From positions 64,001 through 128,000 of IMG/VR virus record IMGVR_UViG_3300028048_000002: a stretch of 64,000 nt of DNA. One strand, 5' to 3'. Below, in pieces: positions 4,996 through 64,000 of the stretch. The position numbers and the translations under genes were made by a program. Position 1 is the first letter of the stretch. Every line of letters begins with the position of its first letter. The DNA is from a virus (Duplodnaviria > Caudoviricetes). The notes below the pieces were generated by a model, which saw only the letters and a program-made list of their open reading frames with translations, was not told the origin of the DNA and did no database searches.

Positions 4996-5060
4996 ATAAA
5001 TACCTCCAACGGATGTAGAAATCTAAATTCATTAAAGGTGATAATATGAAAATAAATGAT

Positions 5061-5321
5061 TCAACACATAGTATGATTCCAAAAATCAAGCAATAACTTC
5101 CTATGTAAAATTCCACGATCATAAGGAGAAAATTCAACCTGAATAACTTTATTATTCAATGTAGATAATTGTTTTTCAGCAAAGAACTTACTAGTCCAAT
5201 TACTAATTGTTCCTACAGGAATTTTAAGTTGTTTTGAAATATCTAAAGATGTTTCTCCTGCAAGTATTCTATTGATGGCTTCAGTTCTAATTTCTTCAGA
5301 ATATATGTAATTTCTACCCAT
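5061..5321 (-). CDS. Helix-turn-helix DNA-binding protein
   Basis: YSEEIRTEAI..GETSLDISKQLKIPVGTISNW transposase/TerS-type HTH pattern. Confidence 0.6.
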   Translation of the reverse strand: MGRNYIYSEEIRTEAINRILAGETSLDISKQLKIPVGTISNWTSKFFAEKQLSTLNNKVIQVEFSPYDRGILHRKLLLDFWNHTMC

Positions 5322-5467
5322 AACAATAAATTAGTGTTACAAAATAATAGATTCCATAAAATAAAATTTTACAGAATCTATTAACGAAATGAAATATAAC
5401 TTGTAATTTAAATAGTTGATATTATGGTAACTTTATATTGAATGACTTTGAAGCTCTTACATAGCAG

Positions 5468-5758
5468 TTAATAATCATATCCAAGTCTTTTATGATACTT
5501 AAGATAAGCATCAATGTCAGCTTTAAGCTCAGCTAAATTATAAGAATGACCACTTACTGTCTCTTGCAATTCATCATCTTCATCCGGATCCATCGACCAC
5601 CAATAAGATACTCCATCAATATCTCTATCTTTATACAACTCCGTCAATCTAACTTGTTGATATTTTGGAAGATTTTTAGCTACAGATTGATCTACATCAG
5701 GATTAGATGAAACTTGTATAGGTTTCCTACCTCTAGCAGCTTTGATAACTCGTTTCAT
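5468..5758 (-). CDS. MKRYIK-leader family protein (MKRVIKAA)
   Basis: Start reassigned to ATG 5758 behind GAAGGA; leader variant. Confidence 0.7.
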   Translation of the reverse strand: MKRVIKAARGRKPIQVSSNPDVDQSVAKNLPKYQQVRLTELYKDRDIDGVSYWWSMDPDEDDELQETVSGHSYNLAELKADIDAYLKYHKRLGYDY

Positions 5759-5762
5759 AATT

Positions 5763-6044
5763 CTATCCTTCATATAGTAACAAACCGTTTTTATGATCTA
5801 TATATCCAGAATCTTCGAGACTTTGCATGATGTCTTCATAAAGTTTATCTTCAAGCGCCTCTGTAAGAGTTGCATGAGTAGTGTAAAAATAATCTTGAAT
5901 TTGAGCATAAGTTTCAGATACTACATCATCATAACTAAAAGCTTCTCCACTTTCAATAAAATCTATAGTATTACTTAATGCTTCTTAATAACAAGCATCA
6001 TATACAGATTCGTTTAAACTGCTAGATTTAATATATCGTTTCAT
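5763..6044 (-). pseudogene. MKRYIK-leader gene with in-frame TAA at codon 20
   Basis: MKRYIKSSSLNESVYDACY*EALSNTIDF...LEDSGYIDHK; TAA at 5985-5987; body resembles the C-terminal domain of 6341..6796. Confidence 0.7.
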
Positions 6045-59559: not shown

Positions 59560-60243
59560 TTAAAAATCTACTTTATCTTCAGATGCAATATCGCTTTCAA
59601 GAGAAGATTCTAGAATATCAGGCATTTCAGAAACTTGAGTAAGCTTTCTAGGTGAAAGCTTATATTCAGGCATAGAATCTACATCTACCGAAGCGTTAGA
59701 ACTAGTAGCACTGAGATGCTCATTATAATCTTGAGAAGTCCAATCTTTACAGATAGAATTGTAGTATTCAGGAAACTCTACATCCAACTTGCTCAAAATA
59801 CCTTCATAATCTAACACATTATTCTTACCAATAGCTTGAATACTGTATCTAGTATTAATATCACCTGCAGCCCCATGTCTAGTGATTCTAAATACAAATT
59901 CAGAGGGATTAGGAAACTTAGAAAATACATCATTTTCTAATTGCTGCTGGAACCTGATAGACCTATCCCAAAATAAAATAGTATTTGATTCAATTACATA
60001 TAAAGGAATAAAGAGTTTTGGCTGAACTCGAATATTACGTTCACATGCAGGGCAAGATCGTGACCCTAAACATTGAACATATCCTGAATGATTTTCAGAT
60101 TTGATATAATGAGTATCACACATAAGCACATCTTGAATACTCTTGTACATGAAAATTACATCAGCACTATCTCCATCATTCTTCAGTAGAAACATTCCGG
60201 AATACCGCTCATTATTATATTCAGTAATCGATTTAAATGCCAT
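59560..60243 (-). CDS. Single-stranded DNA-binding protein (gp32-like)
   Basis: FLLKNDGDSA, H..C..CPAC zinc motif, FRITRHG..TRYS, acidic tail ending DF. Confidence 0.7.
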   Translation of the reverse strand: MAFKSITEYNNERYSGMFLLKNDGDSADVIFMYKSIQDVLMCDTHYIKSENHSGYVQCLGSRSCPACERNIRVQPKLFIPLYVIESNTILFWDRSIRFQQQLENDVFSKFPNPSEFVFRITRHGAAGDINTRYSIQAIGKNNVLDYEGILSKLDVEFPEYYNSICKDWTSQDYNEHLSATSSNASVDVDSMPEYKLSPRKLTQVSEMPDILESSLESDIASEDKVDF

Positions 60244-60302
60244 ATTATTTACCTCCTGTATTCTTGACATTTAACGGCGTCAAAAGATATTAACGATATT
60301 AA

Positions 60303-60758
60303 TTAAAATTCTTTTCTCCAAGTTACATAAGAACTTGCAGTTTCTCTAAGTTTTGTTTCTTTCAAATGAACATCTGAATAATTAGATTCAATAAAAGAAT
60401 CAACTACCTGAGAAATATGCTTTAAGATATTTTCTACAGACACAGAACCTCGTATTGGGTAACAACTTACATTACATGCGTTAAAGGCTGTAGTAACTAA
60501 AACTTGTTTTTGATCATTTACATCGTATAAAAATTGACCCTCAGGAGAAGCTTCCTTTAAAATTTTCTTAAAAATTTTGAAATCAATCAATTTATTTGAA
60601 GTATTATCAGGAAGACCTTGAACAGTAGCTTCGAGTTTATACTGATATGCATTTAATCTATATTTCTCAGATCCAGTATTATCTATATATTTATCTAAGT
60701 AACAGCAAGAAAACTCAGTTCTTTGAGTTACTTCTAAGGCAGCATCAGATTTTTGCAT
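60303..60758 (-). CDS. QueD/PTPS-fold protein lacking the metal-binding histidines
   Basis: TEFSCCYL, LNAYQYKLEATVQG, LIDFKIFK, SVENI, LRETASSYV follow the QueD layout. Confidence 0.55.
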   Translation of the reverse strand: MQKSDAALEVTQRTEFSCCYLDKYIDNTGSEKYRLNAYQYKLEATVQGLPDNTSNKLIDFKIFKKILKEASPEGQFLYDVNDQKQVLVTTAFNACNVSCYPIRGSVSVENILKHISQVVDSFIESNYSDVHLKETKLRETASSYVTWRKEF

Positions 60759-60796
60759 TTATATCTCCTAAATCATTACACAAAAAGATGCTAGAG

Positions 60797-60878
60797 TCCG
60801 GGTGGAGGGATTCGAACCCTCATGCTCAAAGAGCGGCAGATTTTGAGTCTGCGATGTATGCCGTTCCATCACACCCGG
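60797..60878 (-). tRNA. tRNA-Leu(CAA), no encoded CCA
   Basis: Anticodon arm GCAGA-CTCAAAA-TCTGC, long variable arm, GGTTCGAATCC. Confidence 0.85.
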
Positions 60879-60899
60879 ATTCTAGCATCTCTTTAAATT

Positions 60900-60973
60900 T
60901 GGAGCAGATGACGAGAATCGAACTCGCATCTAAAGCTTGGAAGGCTTCTATTCTACCATTGAACTACATCTGC
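60900..60973 (-). tRNA. tRNA-Gly(TCC)
   Basis: Cloverleaf, loop CTTCCAA, CCA end. Confidence 0.9.
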
Positions 60974-60974
60974 T

Positions 60975-61050
60975 TGGTAGGGGATGAAAGAATCGAACTT
61001 TCAACATACGGGTTATGAGCCCGGTGTTCTAACCATTGAACTAATCCCCC
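60975..61050 (-). tRNA. tRNA with CAT anticodon (Met or Ile2)
   Basis: Cloverleaf, loop CTCATAA, CCA end. Confidence 0.85.
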
Positions 61051-61061
61051 TCTTATAATAT

Positions 61062-61141
61062 ATCACCTTTTGATTTAAACAAATACATTGCAGAAATTTA
61101 TTTAAATCTTTAACGGACTAGCAGAATTTACCGAGGGTGAT
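61062..61141 (-). ncRNA. Unassigned three-way-junction RNA, copy A
   Basis: ATCACC-CT-CGGTAA..AGTCCG-TTAAA-[13-bp stem]-AAAA-GGTGAT; homologous to 63279..63347. Confidence 0.6.
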
Positions 61142-61191
61142 TATATCCGCTATGTAATATCTTAGTATATTATAACGATGCAAGATAGCTA

Positions 61192-61270
61192 CTAAGGAAA
61201 TACTTACGCTAGCAAAGCTGACTGAAAACAAAATTAATCTATCTGATGCAACTAGCGTATCATCACTTAG
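61192..61270 (-). ncRNA. Y RNA-like element 1
   Basis: CTAAG-TGATGA-TACGCTAG-TTGCATC...CTAGCGTA-AGTATTTC-CTTAG; motif repeated four times around the TROVE gene. Confidence 0.65.
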
Positions 61271-61343
61271 TATTTATTATATTTTCAAGGTTAATCATAT
61301 ACGTATTAACGAATAGATTATAAATTTATATAAATAAACTAGC

Positions 61344-61479
61344 TTGAGGAAACACTTAAATCAGCATTACAATAAGCGCTCTTCCAGACCTGAGCTAATG
61401 AGCACATTCATGCCTATACAGGATTCGAACCTGTGACCTCTCGATTTCCATTCGATGCAACTGATTTATCATCACTCAA
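61344..61479 (-). ncRNA. YrlA-type Y RNA with permuted tRNA-like domain
   Basis: Same terminal module enclosing T arm (CAGGTTCGAATCCTG), a closed acceptor-like stem, then D arm (TAGCTCAG..GGAAGAGC). Confidence 0.75.
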
Positions 61480-61495
61480 ACAACTTATTTAATTA

Positions 61496-62971
61496 TCAAT
61501 ATACGTAATATCTTACTATATCTAATAACGATTTTGTTTCATCCTCTTGAATTTCAATTATCTTAAACACAACATCTGTAAGTGCTGTGATATATGAAAT
61601 ATCAGATCGCGTTGAAACAACTTGACTATGATAGTTTCCAAGGTCAAAGCTATAAATGTGAGAGGGTCCGTAGTTATCTACATATTTCCTCCATAAGCTG
61701 TTTGCAGACCTGCTACTATCTGCGTAGTACGACCATCGACTACCATCCATAACTTGCATATCTGAAAACAAGAATACTCTGTCATAATGCTTATCTAACA
61801 TATTGAATACTGTTGAAATTTCAGTACCATATCCAAGACCCTCGTTTTTTGCAAGCATTGAAATTAACTTAAATTGATTGCCTGCTGTAAACGTATCTTT
61901 TTTCCACTTCTTAGCCTTCGTCCCAAATTTAATAAAATCAACATTAGACCTAAATCCAGAAACTAAGAATGCAGAAGCATAAACTGCACACAATTCTTTA
62001 ATCGTCAAAGAACTGTTCTGGCTAAATCGAGAATCCATAGACCCGGAAACATCAAGGACTACAAGTGTATTCCCGTCAAGATACGGCATATTTCCTGTGG
62101 AAATCTCAAACGCTTCTGACAATGCTGTCTCAACATAGAGCCCAATTCCTTCTTGGTTAAGCGTCTTCCAAGCAGTGTAAATTTGAAGCGGCCAAACTAG
62201 TGATTTCTTGATTGCAGCCTCATTTATAATTTGAGGGACAAGGTTCTCTTTGATCCAAGAACTGGAAGCAAAAGAACATTTGCAGATATTACGAAGATTT
62301 CTGAGAAGTGCAAGATACCCGAGCTTTTTCTCTTCAACCAAACGCTTCCATTCTGATTCTTTTTCTTCCACTGATTTCGCTGAAGAAATTTTTACTTCCC
62401 AAGTATCCGGAGTCTCTAAGGTTCCTTTCTGATATTGATCTATTGCATCAGATTTTGCATGAGTGATATTGATGATATCATGCATGTTATATTTATGATT
62501 TCGCATAGGATATTTGCCAATTTGATAGGCTGAGAGCGAACTGAGGTAATCCGCAACCCCTCGGATTAAAGCATGAGAACGCTTACCACCGAGATGATCT
62601 ACAGCAGCAAATACTTCACCTACACCATCAGGTCGATGAAAATACTTAGCATAAAAATTGCGCTTATCTTTCCACTGGACGCCATTGAGTATAGCGGCAG
62701 TAAGCTCAGAAATTGAACGCATTCCAAGTTCATTACGTGCATATACAGCAGCTGTACCTATGAGCTCTGGAGAATATTTAGAAATCATTTGGTTAGTCAA
62801 ATCTACAAACCTAGATTCTTGTTCCTCAGCTGACTCGTAGAATCGAGGTTGAAGAATTGAAGAAAAGATTGCGTTACTCCATTCATCCTCTAGATACTTT
62901 GAGTATGCTACTCCTCCCTCAAAAGTAGCAGTTTTCCGAACGTTGATGTTCTTTTCATTGAACTTGCTCAT
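61496..62971 (-). CDS. TROVE-domain / Ro60 (Rsr) RNA-binding protein with vWA domain
   Basis: TFEGGVAY, YARNELGMRS, TPDTWE, LGYLALLRNLRN, VLDVSGSM (MIDAS), GYGT, FSDMQ. Confidence 0.9.
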   Translation of the reverse strand: MSKFNEKNINVRKTATFEGGVAYSKYLEDEWSNAIFSSILQPRFYESAEEQESRFVDLTNQMISKYSPELIGTAAVYARNELGMRSISELTAAILNGVQWKDKRNFYAKYFHRPDGVGEVFAAVDHLGGKRSHALIRGVADYLSSLSAYQIGKYPMRNHKYNMHDIINITHAKSDAIDQYQKGTLETPDTWEVKISSAKSVEEKESEWKRLVEEKKLGYLALLRNLRNICKCSFASSSWIKENLVPQIINEAAIKKSLVWPLQIYTAWKTLNQEGIGLYVETALSEAFEISTGNMPYLDGNTLVVLDVSGSMDSRFSQNSSLTIKELCAVYASAFLVSGFRSNVDFIKFGTKAKKWKKDTFTAGNQFKLISMLAKNEGLGYGTEISTVFNMLDKHYDRVFLFSDMQVMDGSRWSYYADSSRSANSLWRKYVDNYGPSHIYSFDLGNYHSQVVSTRSDISYITALTDVVFKIIEIQEDETKSLLDIVRYYVY

Positions 62972-62984
62972 TGCAATCACTCCT

Positions 62985-63049
62985 TACAAGGAAACTTATG
63001 TAGAAAGTAGCTTCTCCTATACGATGTAACTCTCTACTCATCACTTGCA
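62985..63049 (-). ncRNA. Y RNA-like element 3, abutting the Ro60 RBS
   Basis: GCAAG-TGATGA-GTAGAGAG-TTACATC...CTTTCTAC-ATAAGTTTC-CTTGT then AAGGAG. Confidence 0.65.
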
Positions 63050-63060
63050 TCAATGGAAAT

Positions 63061-63146
63061 TTAGATGCTGGAAATAACTTAATCAGATAAAGTAGCATAA
63101 TTTCAAGTTATCTATGAAGTAACTGATCAATCATCACAGCATCTAA
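63061..63146 (-). ncRNA. Y RNA-like element 4
   Basis: TTAGATGCTG-TGATGA-TTGATCAG-TTACTTC...CTGATTAA-GTTATTTC-CAGCATCTAA. Confidence 0.65.
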
Positions 63147-63196
63147 TTTCTATATGTATATAATATAACGAACTTTAAATTTCGATATAAATCTAT

Positions 63197-63270
63197 TGGC
63201 TGCGCGACCAGGATTCGAACCTGGATAGCTGGAACCAAAATCCAGAGTCCTGCCGTTGGACGATCGCGCA
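63197..63270 (-). tRNA. tRNA-Gln(TTG)
   Basis: CTGGA-TTTTGGT-TCCAG anticodon arm, CCA end. Confidence 0.9.
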
Positions 63271-63278
63271 GCATTATT

Positions 63279-63347
63279 TATGCCTTTTGCAATAGCTACC
63301 GAAGCAACTAAGCTTTAACAGACTCTCCGAAGATTACTGAGGGCATA
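63279..63347 (-). ncRNA. Unassigned three-way-junction RNA, copy B
   Basis: TATGCC-CT-CAGTAA-TCTTCGGAG-AGTCTG-TTAAA-[stem, cUUCGg]-AAAA-GGCATA. Confidence 0.6.
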
Positions 63348-63361
63348 TACTGAATAACTAT

Positions 63362-63435
63362 TGGAGCCGATAGCAGGAATCGAACCCGCATATACGCATT
63401 ACAAGTGCGTTGTTCTACCATTAAACTATATCGGC
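63362..63435 (-). tRNA. tRNA-Thr(TGT)
   Basis: ACGCA-CTTGTAA-TGCGT, CCA end. Confidence 0.9.
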
Positions 63436-63436
63436 C

Positions 63437-63525
63437 TGGCGGAGGATGTAGGATTCGAACCTACGGAGGCTATTAACCTCGACAGTTTTCAAGACTGCTT
63501 CCTTAGACCTCTCGGACAATCCTCC
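63437..63525 (-). tRNA. tRNA-Ser(TGA)
   Basis: GCAGT-CTTGAAA-ACTGT, long variable arm, GCCA end. Confidence 0.9.
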
Positions 63526-63589
63526 ATATTAAAGAACTCCATGTATACTCCAAATCTATAATTAATACAGAAATAATCTGCTAACTATC

Positions 63590-63665
63590 TGGTGGATCCG
63601 GTGGGACTCGAACCCACGGTCTCGAGATTAAAAGTCTCTTGCTTTTCCATCTAAGCTACGGATCC
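63590..63665 (-). tRNA. tRNA-Lys(TTT)
   Basis: GGATCCG/CGGATCC acceptor stem, loop CTTTTAA, CCA end. Confidence 0.9.
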
Positions 63666-63668
63666 AAC

Positions 63669-63743
63669 TGGTGCCCCTTGTAGGACTCGAACTCACGGTC
63701 TTAGTATTAAAAGTCCTTTCTTTGCCAACTAAGCTACGGAGTC
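63669..63743 (-). pseudogene. Degenerate tRNA-Lys(TTT)
   Basis: Similar to the adjacent tRNA-Lys but acceptor, anticodon and T stems mispaired; CCA retained. Confidence 0.6.
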
Positions 63744-63773
63744 TTTTCAACTATCTTATAAATATGTAACAAA

Positions 63774-64000
63774 TTACTTTTTCATCCAATTGTAAGTTCT
63801 ACCTCGTCTAAATCCTTCAGGAATTTTATCGTTCTTATTTATCTTCTTATTCACATCCCCATTAGTTATCCAAATTGTTCCATATTGGGAATTTGAAGCA
63901 TCTAAAGCTTTTAACGAATTCAAACGATTTTCTTCTTTTTTAGTTTCTAATAATTTGTGCATATCTATACGTGGCTGCACATTTAAATTTTCAAGCTTTT
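63774..64000 (-). CDS. C-terminus of a probable homing endonuclease (partial)
   Basis: GTIWITNG..NKKI..IPEGFRRGR DNA-binding tail; frame open to window end. Confidence 0.55.
   Translation of the reverse strand, partial: KLENLNVQPRIDMHKLLETKKEENRLNSLKALDASNSQYGTIWITNGDVNKKINKNDKIPEGFRRGRTYNWMKK

Follow-up and report, generated by a model that had tools for sequence, protein, structure and literature searches.

An uncatalogued three-way-junction RNA family embedded in phage tRNA arrays

We investigated a small RNA element that occurs twice in the transfer RNA (tRNA) gene array of a phage recovered from metagenomes. The window, that is, the whole stretch of DNA analyzed here, is 64,000 nucleotides (nt) long and is the middle part of an IMG/VR phage genome that is complete, has terminal repeats, and measures 162,817 bp (record IMGVR_UViG_3300028048_000002); public runs containing it are mostly from cattle gut or rumen samples. 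Both copies of the element lie on the minus strand of the window, which is the strand of all its tRNA genes, and both follow the layout P1–CU–P2(CRG..UA..AGY..CYG)–UUAAAG–P3–CAAAA–P1′. Copy A (61062..61141, minus strand, 80 nt) reads, from 61141 to 61062, AUCACC, CU, CGG-UAAAUUCUGCUAGU-CCG, UUAAAG, a 35-nt hairpin, CAAAA, and GGUGAU. Its 5′ strand of P1 occupies 61141–61136, the junction strand J1/2 (CU) 61135–61134, the P2 arm 61133–61114, J2/3 (UUAAAG) 61113–61108, P3, a long AU-rich hairpin, 61107–61073, J3/1 (CAAAA) 61072–61068, and the 3′ strand of P1 61067–61062. Copy B (63279..63347, minus strand, 69 nt) reads, from 63347 to 63279, UAUGCC, CU, CAG-UAAUCUUCGGAGAGU-CUG, UUAAAG, a 23-nt hairpin, CAAAA, and GGCAUA, with the 5′ strand of P1 at 63347–63342, CU at 63341–63340, the P2 arm with an inner c(UUCG)g at 63339–63319, UUAAAG at 63318–63313, the P3 hairpin, again with a c(UUCG)g, at 63312–63290, CAAAA at 63289–63285, and the 3′ strand of P1 at 63284–63279. 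Copy A is followed after 11 nt by tRNA-Met(CAT) (60975..61050, minus strand; ARAGORN and the Rfam tRNA model, 70.2 bits) and copy B after 8 nt by tRNA-Gln(TTG) (63197..63270, minus strand; ARAGORN and Rfam tRNA, 58.6 bits), and both gaps are as described in the original prediction, which had been made from the sequence of the window. On its other side, copy B is preceded by tRNA-Thr(TGT) with an encoded CCA (63362..63435, minus strand; ARAGORN and Rfam tRNA, 73.8 bits), which ends 14 nt ahead of it.

The original prediction regarded the two copies as one functional RNA whose stems had changed while their pairing was kept, and this was borne out: the P1 sequences are wholly different yet pair, P2 is formed by CGG/CCG in copy A and by CAG/CUG in copy B, and the P3 sequences are unrelated. 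The two c(UUCG)g tetraloops attributed to copy B were also read as such. Conversely, the likeness of the GUAA/AGUC arm to a T-loop hairpin did not hold, as the arm is an internal loop (5′-UA-N / N-AG-Y) under a UUCG-type tetraloop cap. The minimum-energy fold of copy A shows P1, P2, and P3 (z −3.0), and no open reading frame (ORF) of at least 50 amino acids covers either copy. Matches to the core pattern in the window were limited to copies A and B, with none in 100 shuffles, and the whole 162.8-kb phage genome contained the same two sites and no others.

Further members were searched for with exact patterns in IMG/VR and in the loci of two neighboring proteins, Rsr (a Ro60/TROVE protein) and PolA (a family-A DNA polymerase). 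Nine more distinct members were found in uncultured phage contigs, bringing the number known so far by these routes to 11 distinct sequences. Metagenomic homologues of the window Rsr protein are many, and the contigs of its closest relatives (63–82% identity) carry one element each, at loci L003 (same sequence as L004), L005, L008, and L010, located 8–14 nt past tRNA-Gly(UCC). The 31-nt core of copy B differs from the L003 and L008 copies solely by one compensated pair. Copy B and these four sequences served to build a covariance model (R1); copy A, which had been left out, was recovered by it (44.9 bits, E 3e-9), and the whole phage genome gave two matches only. Copy B scored 82.2 bits with R1, and copy A scored 62.1 bits with model R2. 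Locus L106 was found via the PolA neighborhood (PolA 69% identity; same synteny of QueD-like, SSB-like, and PolA genes), where the corresponding slot is without Rsr; its element has an additional hairpin (two hairpins in place of P3) and a 9-bp P1. Looser pattern scans of IMG/VR yielded L113/L114 (the 44-kb fragments G001/G002), counted as one member, and pattern scans of the same database yielded L130 in G004, a complete 133-kb phage, as well as L126 and L127, whose model scores were weaker (19.5 and 16.8 bits). The 3′ part GUGAG-AAA-G, which lay outside the pattern selection, is common to L126, L127, and L113. The strict core pattern had no further matches in IMG/VR, and BLAST of the element against 50,697 GenBank phages returned no match.

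Several other hits were not counted as members. Scans for a pattern of UUAAAG and CAAAAGG returned a single GC-rich sequence that recurs in several records, one of them a Prevotella metagenome-assembled genome (L011–L013, L015, L016, and L104; 13 bits), as well as L014 (20 bits) and L105 (12.6 bits); these are without the AGY loop strand and without tRNA context, and they were treated as chance matches or undecided. L123–L125, L128, and L129 (19 bits or less) were rejected as coding-like sequence.

Across the family, which spans about 63–106 nt, the consensus is a three-way junction of the form P1 (3–9 bp)–CU–CRG [UA-N, small capped hairpin, N-AG-Y] CYG–U(U/G)AAAG–P3–(C)(A/G)AAA–P1′. The innermost C-G pair of P1 is invariant, and the second pair, which is an invariant C-G in the window clade, is changed to G-C in L130, L126, and L127. 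In P2, a CRG/CYG stem encloses the conserved internal loop (5′-UA-N opposite N-AG-Y) and a small capped hairpin, and P3 is a freely exchangeable hairpin, usually with a UUCG loop. RNAalifold applied to a MAFFT alignment of five sequences returned the same structure as the one derived by hand, with 91% of cells paired and double changes in eight pairs. In a seven-sequence alignment, which was fitted to the covariance model and is therefore biased towards it, whereas the five-sequence alignment is free of that bias, 92% of cells were paired and double changes occurred in 13 of 18 pairs. None of 500 shuffles reached these values, and sliding the pairing partners lowered the pairing to 24–51%. In addition, 13 G-U cells would be A-C on the opposite strand, indicating that the folded strand is the tRNA-sense RNA. 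Given the agreement with RNAalifold, the covariation above shuffles, the G-U strand signal, and the absence of ORFs, the element is a selected RNA structure and not a chance similarity. The structural part of the claim of a functional RNA, namely a conserved fold with exchangeable stems and fixed junction strands, thus agrees with both the relatives and the covariation.

The element also belongs to no known Rfam family, as had been claimed: a refuting match was sought in Rfam 15 (4227 models), and no model overlapped copy A or B at the gathering threshold, nor at E ≤ 10 on 60700–64000, and none overlapped the elements of L003, L008, L106, L113, L126, L127, and L130 at E ≤ 1. Known classes were also considered individually and rejected. 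ARAGORN and the Rfam tRNA model call the neighboring tRNAs and not the elements, which have three helices only and UUCG-type tetraloops. The hammerhead ribozyme has a core of CUGANGA and GAAA and a UH cleavage site, as against the junction strands CU, U(U/G)AAAG, and (C)(A/G)AAA of the element, and no Rfam hammerhead model matched. A fold like that of the hepatitis delta virus (HDV) ribozyme or of theta ribozymes was rejected likewise: the spacers between the CCA of the upstream tRNA and P1 cannot be aligned and are in most members not complementary to J2/3 (they are only in L008), and there was no match to an Rfam HDV family. Resemblances noted by eye to hammerhead, HDV/theta, and pistol ribozymes, loop A of the hairpin ribozyme, UAA/GAN and sarcin-ricin loops, the GTPase-associated three-way junction of 23S rRNA, the 3′ handles of clustered regularly interspaced short palindromic repeats (xUGAAAG), and armless tRNA did not hold across the 11 sequences.

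We then turn to the genomic context. Nine of the 11 members are found within tRNA arrays; they share the strand of the tRNAs and have at least one tRNA no more than 14 nt away. The element strand is the sense strand of the neighbors in all members. The original description of a position just 5′ of a tRNA applies to four members (copies A and B, L008, and L113), which end 7–11 nt ahead of a tRNA, but not to the rest, some of which follow tRNA-Gly and two of which lie in a tail operon. Six members begin 8–14 nt past the encoded CCA of a tRNA; where an element lies 8–14 nt 3′ of tRNA-Gly but not just ahead of a tRNA, the next tRNA is 37–108 nt off or absent. L113 and L130 begin 10–11 nt past the stop codon of an ORF. 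The spacers between element and tRNA (7–14 nt) are unconserved, as are the spacers between tRNAs, and the slot in the array differs, being before tRNA-Met and between tRNA-Thr and tRNA-Gln in the window and after tRNA-Gly in its relatives. There is one copy per genome, except for the two in the window genome. L126 and L127 come from related siphophages (G005 and G006), in which the element follows the major tail protein gene (phrog_2645, E 1e-99 or better) and precedes both the tail assembly chaperone region and the tape measure gene; the fetched L126 and L127 loci contain no tRNA.

The carriers represent more than one phage lineage, since G001 has no proteins in common with the window genome by tblastx, no homologue of the window PolA was found in G004, and G005 and G006 hold the element in a different (tail) context. 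G001 encodes a siphophage tail protein and a lysin with GH25, CW_7, and PG_binding domains, which is typical of phages of Gram-positive hosts.

In the window, the Rsr gene (61496–62980, minus strand) lies between the two copies and has on its flanks a permuted tRNA mimic resembling YrlA, along with further RNAs, and the element might be taken for a Y-RNA-like partner of the phage Rsr that tethers it to an effector as YrlA and YrlB do. The element is encoded beside an Rsr/TROVE gene only in the window, L003, L005, L008, and L010, where it is at most about 600 nt away from an Rsr gene with YrlA-like RNAs on its flanks, and Rsr-encoding bacteria typically have several Y RNAs rather than one (PMC4201824), which would accord with such a partner. 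Furthermore, the core holds GUCCG, part of the vertebrate GGUCCGA motif, but this stretch varies (GUCUG, GCCCG) only as a paired strand of P2. None of the 11 element sequences contains GNCGAAN0-1G, the bacterial Y RNA motif proposed to bind Rsr (PMC4201824), whereas the neighboring YrlA-like RNA has a near-form of it (AUCGAAUG). The element also lacks the T-arm and the long stem of paired ends that bacterial Y RNAs have, both of which the YrlA-like neighbor possesses, and no arm of the GUUCGAAUC type (Y RNA T-arm/D-arm) was found in the element sequences. The Rfam YrlA model, RF02553, matches the YrlA-like RNA of the window (61355–61467, minus strand) with 28.9 bits, below its 69-bit cut-off, and L003:2450–2559, but leaves the elements unmatched. 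Regarding distribution, there is no TROVE gene in the complete G004 (133 kb), nor in the five records G001–G003, G005, and G006, all of which have the element; conversely, there is no element in 79 other IMG/VR phage Rsr loci, nor in the Rsr subclade of 58–62% identity (79 plus six other phage Rsr loci in all). Because there are carriers without TROVE and Rsr loci without the element, the element is not tied to Rsr, and its adjacency reflects the tRNA-island make-up of one phage clade. A role as partner of Rsr is thus largely refuted by the distribution, and we consider it highly improbable.

Comparison with known systems places the element among RNAs embedded in phage tRNA arrays. The tRNA gene cluster of phage T4 holds the stable RNAs RNAC and RNAD (species 1 and 2), of about 120–140 nt. 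Their function has been unexplained for decades, and the extra RNAs of phage tRNA arrays are almost all without an assigned function. RNAC and RNAD are, like the element, structured non-tRNA genes within a phage tRNA cluster and on the tRNA strand, presumably co-transcribed with the tRNAs and released by tRNA processing; nine of the 11 members are of this kind, 7–14 nt from a tRNA. They have no sequence or fold relation to the element, which is a 63–106-nt three-way junction with fixed junction strands and belongs to a family that also occurs outside tRNA arrays (in a tail operon). Aptamers of the purine-riboswitch type are similar in size (about 70 nt) and in having a conserved junction from which three helices extend, P1 being the closing one, whereas the element has no loop–loop contact (its caps are UUCG), junctions of 2, 6, and 5 nt, and no expression platform, and it is not upstream of any consistent gene. 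Theta (minimal HDV-like) ribozymes adjoin tRNAs of gut Caudoviricetes (10.1101/2023.06.13.544163) and are likewise small conserved RNAs, found in animal gut viromes immediately downstream of phage tRNA genes, but theirs is a nested double-pseudoknot HDV fold with cleavage at its own 5′ end, whereas the element has a three-way junction free of pseudoknots and shows no conserved pairing with the sequence on its 5′ side. YrlA-type Y RNAs (RF02553; Chen et al. 2014, PMC4201824) are also small and modular, with a conserved frame and exchangeable parts, and in the window their genes adjoin Rsr in the tRNA island that also holds the element; the element differs in having no T-arm/D-arm mimic, no GNCGAAN0-1G, and no long 5′/3′ stem, and in being found in phages without Rsr. 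The closest known RNAs are T4 RNAC and RNAD, with YrlA-type Y RNAs close by neighborhood only, and the element is a novel, uncatalogued family whose fold and sequence are not in Rfam.

As to function, we tentatively favor, with low confidence, a stable small RNA that is cut from heavily transcribed precursors and whose invariant junction and P2 loop bind a protein. Transcription would place the element in precursors made at very high levels, namely tRNA operons or, at its 3′ end, the message for the major tail protein. Host processing of tRNA and mRNA would release it, with RNase P cutting 5′ of the next tRNA and upstream 3′-end processing cutting on the other side. Exonucleases would then trim it back to P1 and leave a small RNA that is stable. 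The invariant strands of its junction, together with the internal loop of P2, may form a specific protein-binding surface, for a role as decoy, sponge, or scaffold of a ribonucleoprotein, with P3 serving as a structural cap or cargo only; the protein partner would be other than the adjacent Rsr of the window. We favor a trans-acting stable RNA because the element is a single unit of tRNA size that is movable, is closed by a protective stem, and sits in the phage RNAs that are transcribed most heavily. It appears to be gene-like rather than a general aid to tRNA processing, because such an aid would be expected at many junctions and not at one. Both contexts, the tRNA operon and the tail message, are strongly transcribed, which fits an RNA that needs to be abundant.

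A number of observations weigh against this reading. In the contexts read, no partner protein was seen to accompany the element. The strongly conserved junction is also typical of ribozymes and aptamers, and for L126 and L127, in the tail operon, a cis role at the 3′ end or in the stability of the tail message is at least as natural. These two members are, in addition, weak by the model (scores given above) and were found with a pattern that fixes part of the motif, and the 11 known sequences, some of which are close relatives, were drawn from about 10 phage records. One RNA-library (metatranscriptome) run contains 48% of the words of the region, in low-depth contigs. These contigs span copy A (60953–61242, no differences) and parts of Rsr at a depth of 2–7, coding and non-coding alike; with such low and uniform depth, DNA carry-over is possible, and the coverage is no proof of transcription. 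No variant letters occurred within either copy in four runs.

The element may instead act in cis as punctuation for processing or stability, its folded junction being recognized by a host or phage ribonuclease (of the RNase III, Y, E, or P type) or blocking exonucleases, so that it sets the ends of the upstream RNA (tRNA or major tail protein message) and of the downstream RNA. This aligns with the short distances at which the element starts after the upstream gene, be it a tRNA CCA (8–14 nt, six members), an ORF stop (10–11 nt, L113 and L130), or the major tail protein ORF (20–55 nt, L126 and L127), and with the four members that end 7–11 nt ahead of a tRNA; in L127, the closing stem also continues into a U-run, and the tail-operon members are the best fit. 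However, U-runs are missing in 10 of the 11 members, the promoter/terminator scan found nothing above shuffles, and there is one element per genome although the arrays have 8–17 tRNA junctions. Moreover, end protection needs a mere hairpin and not about 25 invariant junction and loop nucleotides. We judge punctuation in cis to be rather unlikely, and two further readings fare worse. In one of them, the conserved junction would be the active core of a new class of small self-cleaving ribozymes that separate RNAs in phage polycistronic transcripts, in a role like that of theta ribozymes. Small nucleolytic ribozymes typically show the features seen here, namely small size, exchangeable UUCG-capped stems, and invariant junction strands. 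The position of the element, beside tRNAs and between late genes of gut and rumen phages, is a niche that phage hammerhead and twister ribozymes also occupy. It is likewise the niche of theta ribozymes (10.1101/2023.06.13.544163). Yet no known ribozyme family matched even at E ≤ 10, the hammerhead core (CUGANGA and G12 of GAAA) is absent, with window-type members having A at the G12 place, and there is no conserved pairing between 5′ spacer and core as an HDV-like fold requires. As the spacers and the outer end of P1 vary, there is no conserved site for a cut at the own end of the element, and the prior for any new motif being a ribozyme is low. The chance of self-cleavage thus seems small. 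Equally slim are the prospects of the broader proposal that the family, with its CU / U(U/G)AAAG / (C)RAAA junction and P2 UA/AGY loop as core, is a new self-cleaving ribozyme class or an RNase-independent punctuation RNA that cuts tRNA and late-gene precursors in gut and rumen phages.

Being compact, built of three helices around an invariant junction, and as large as a purine riboswitch, the element could also be a ligand-sensing aptamer (riboswitch-like) or another cis-regulator of downstream genes. The window clade always has one copy upstream of the QueD-like – SSB-like – PolA operon, and in L126 and L127 the element is 35–55 nt upstream of a ribosome-binding site. Against this, the downstream genes are unrelated between contexts (tRNAs, a tail chaperone, and a QueD-like gene), tRNA genes separate the element from the operon, and what comes after copy B is just tRNA-Gln and Y-like RNAs. 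Neither alternative pairing nor a terminator was seen that could serve as an expression platform, and no Rfam riboswitch matched, leaving the aptamer very unlikely.

Whichever role applies, phage tRNA arrays contain more than tRNAs, and the element is a clean case, with a compact, strongly covarying fold and about 25 fixed nucleotides. That it occurs in two kinds of highly expressed transcript, and in no fewer than four phage lineages that are unrelated, suggests a portable function selected in its own right and not a by-product of the biology of one phage. If it were a ribozyme or a decoy for a host factor or defense protein, it would be a new RNA tool in the phage–host repertoire; if it were a mere processing signal, it would still show how phages organize tRNA and late-gene transcripts. 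Its separation from the Ro60/Y-RNA module guards that system against over-interpretation, and its small size suits direct tests.

The genes around the two copies are all on the minus strand. In order of transcription, the region begins with a weak tRNA-like sequence, followed by tRNA-Lys, tRNA-Ser, tRNA-Thr, copy B, tRNA-Gln, and a Y-RNA-like sequence of about 215 nt; it continues with the Rsr gene, encoding a 494-amino-acid TROVE/Ro60 protein (Pfam 8e-16), the YrlA-like RNA, and a second Y-like RNA, and ends with copy A, tRNA-Met, tRNA-Gly, tRNA-Leu, the QueD-like gene, the SSB-like gene, and the family-A DNA polymerase. The tRNA-like sequence heading the array (63672–63743, minus strand) adjoins tRNA-Lys and scores 20.1 bits with the Rfam tRNA model, below the cut-off; ARAGORN made no call there. 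The further RNAs flanking Rsr (about 61190–61270 and about 62985–63150, minus strand) have a common frame, GUGAUGAU..AGUU(A/G)CAUC ... UUUCC, which also occurs beside Rsr in L003, L005, L008, and L010. The gap between the tRNA array and PolA is filled by two ORFs on the minus strand, an SSB-like protein (59560–60270; phrog_14578, 6e-23) and a QueD-like 6-pyruvoyl-tetrahydropterin synthase (60303–60758; Pfam PTPS 9e-8, phrog_2389), and this order is kept in L003, L005, L010, L106, L108, and L109.

A recurrent ATCGTTA(A/T)TA motif occurs four times in the window, against 1.4 expected, which is no clear enrichment. Another recurrent motif of about 35 nt, CGTTA-N9-12-(T)AAC(C/T)TTGAAAAT(A), lies directly upstream of several tRNA and Y-like RNA genes of this clade (L106:6070–6106, L008:2085–2124, L003:530–563, and about 61285–61325 on the minus strand of the window) and may be a promoter for individual RNA genes. 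The tRNA arrays of element carriers are also interrupted by free-standing homing endonuclease genes (HNH/NUMOD4 and GIY-YIG), located at L106:5268–6092 (plus strand), L113:2605–3222 and 5019–5972 (both minus strand), and L130:7344–7946 (plus strand). Similarly, the family-A DNA polymerase of relatives is interrupted (L005:4485–8419 and L106:8001–12447): in L005, two PolA ORFs surround an AcrVA2-like ORF with a weak intein match, and in L106, two PolA matches are about 900 nt apart. Finally, a tRNA with a GUU anticodon loop (L113:3301–3371, identical to L116:1423–1493; minus strand), which scores 50.1 bits with Rfam and was missed by ARAGORN, has an odd T-loop (AGCGUUA) and an odd D-loop and lies 7–10 nt past the element.

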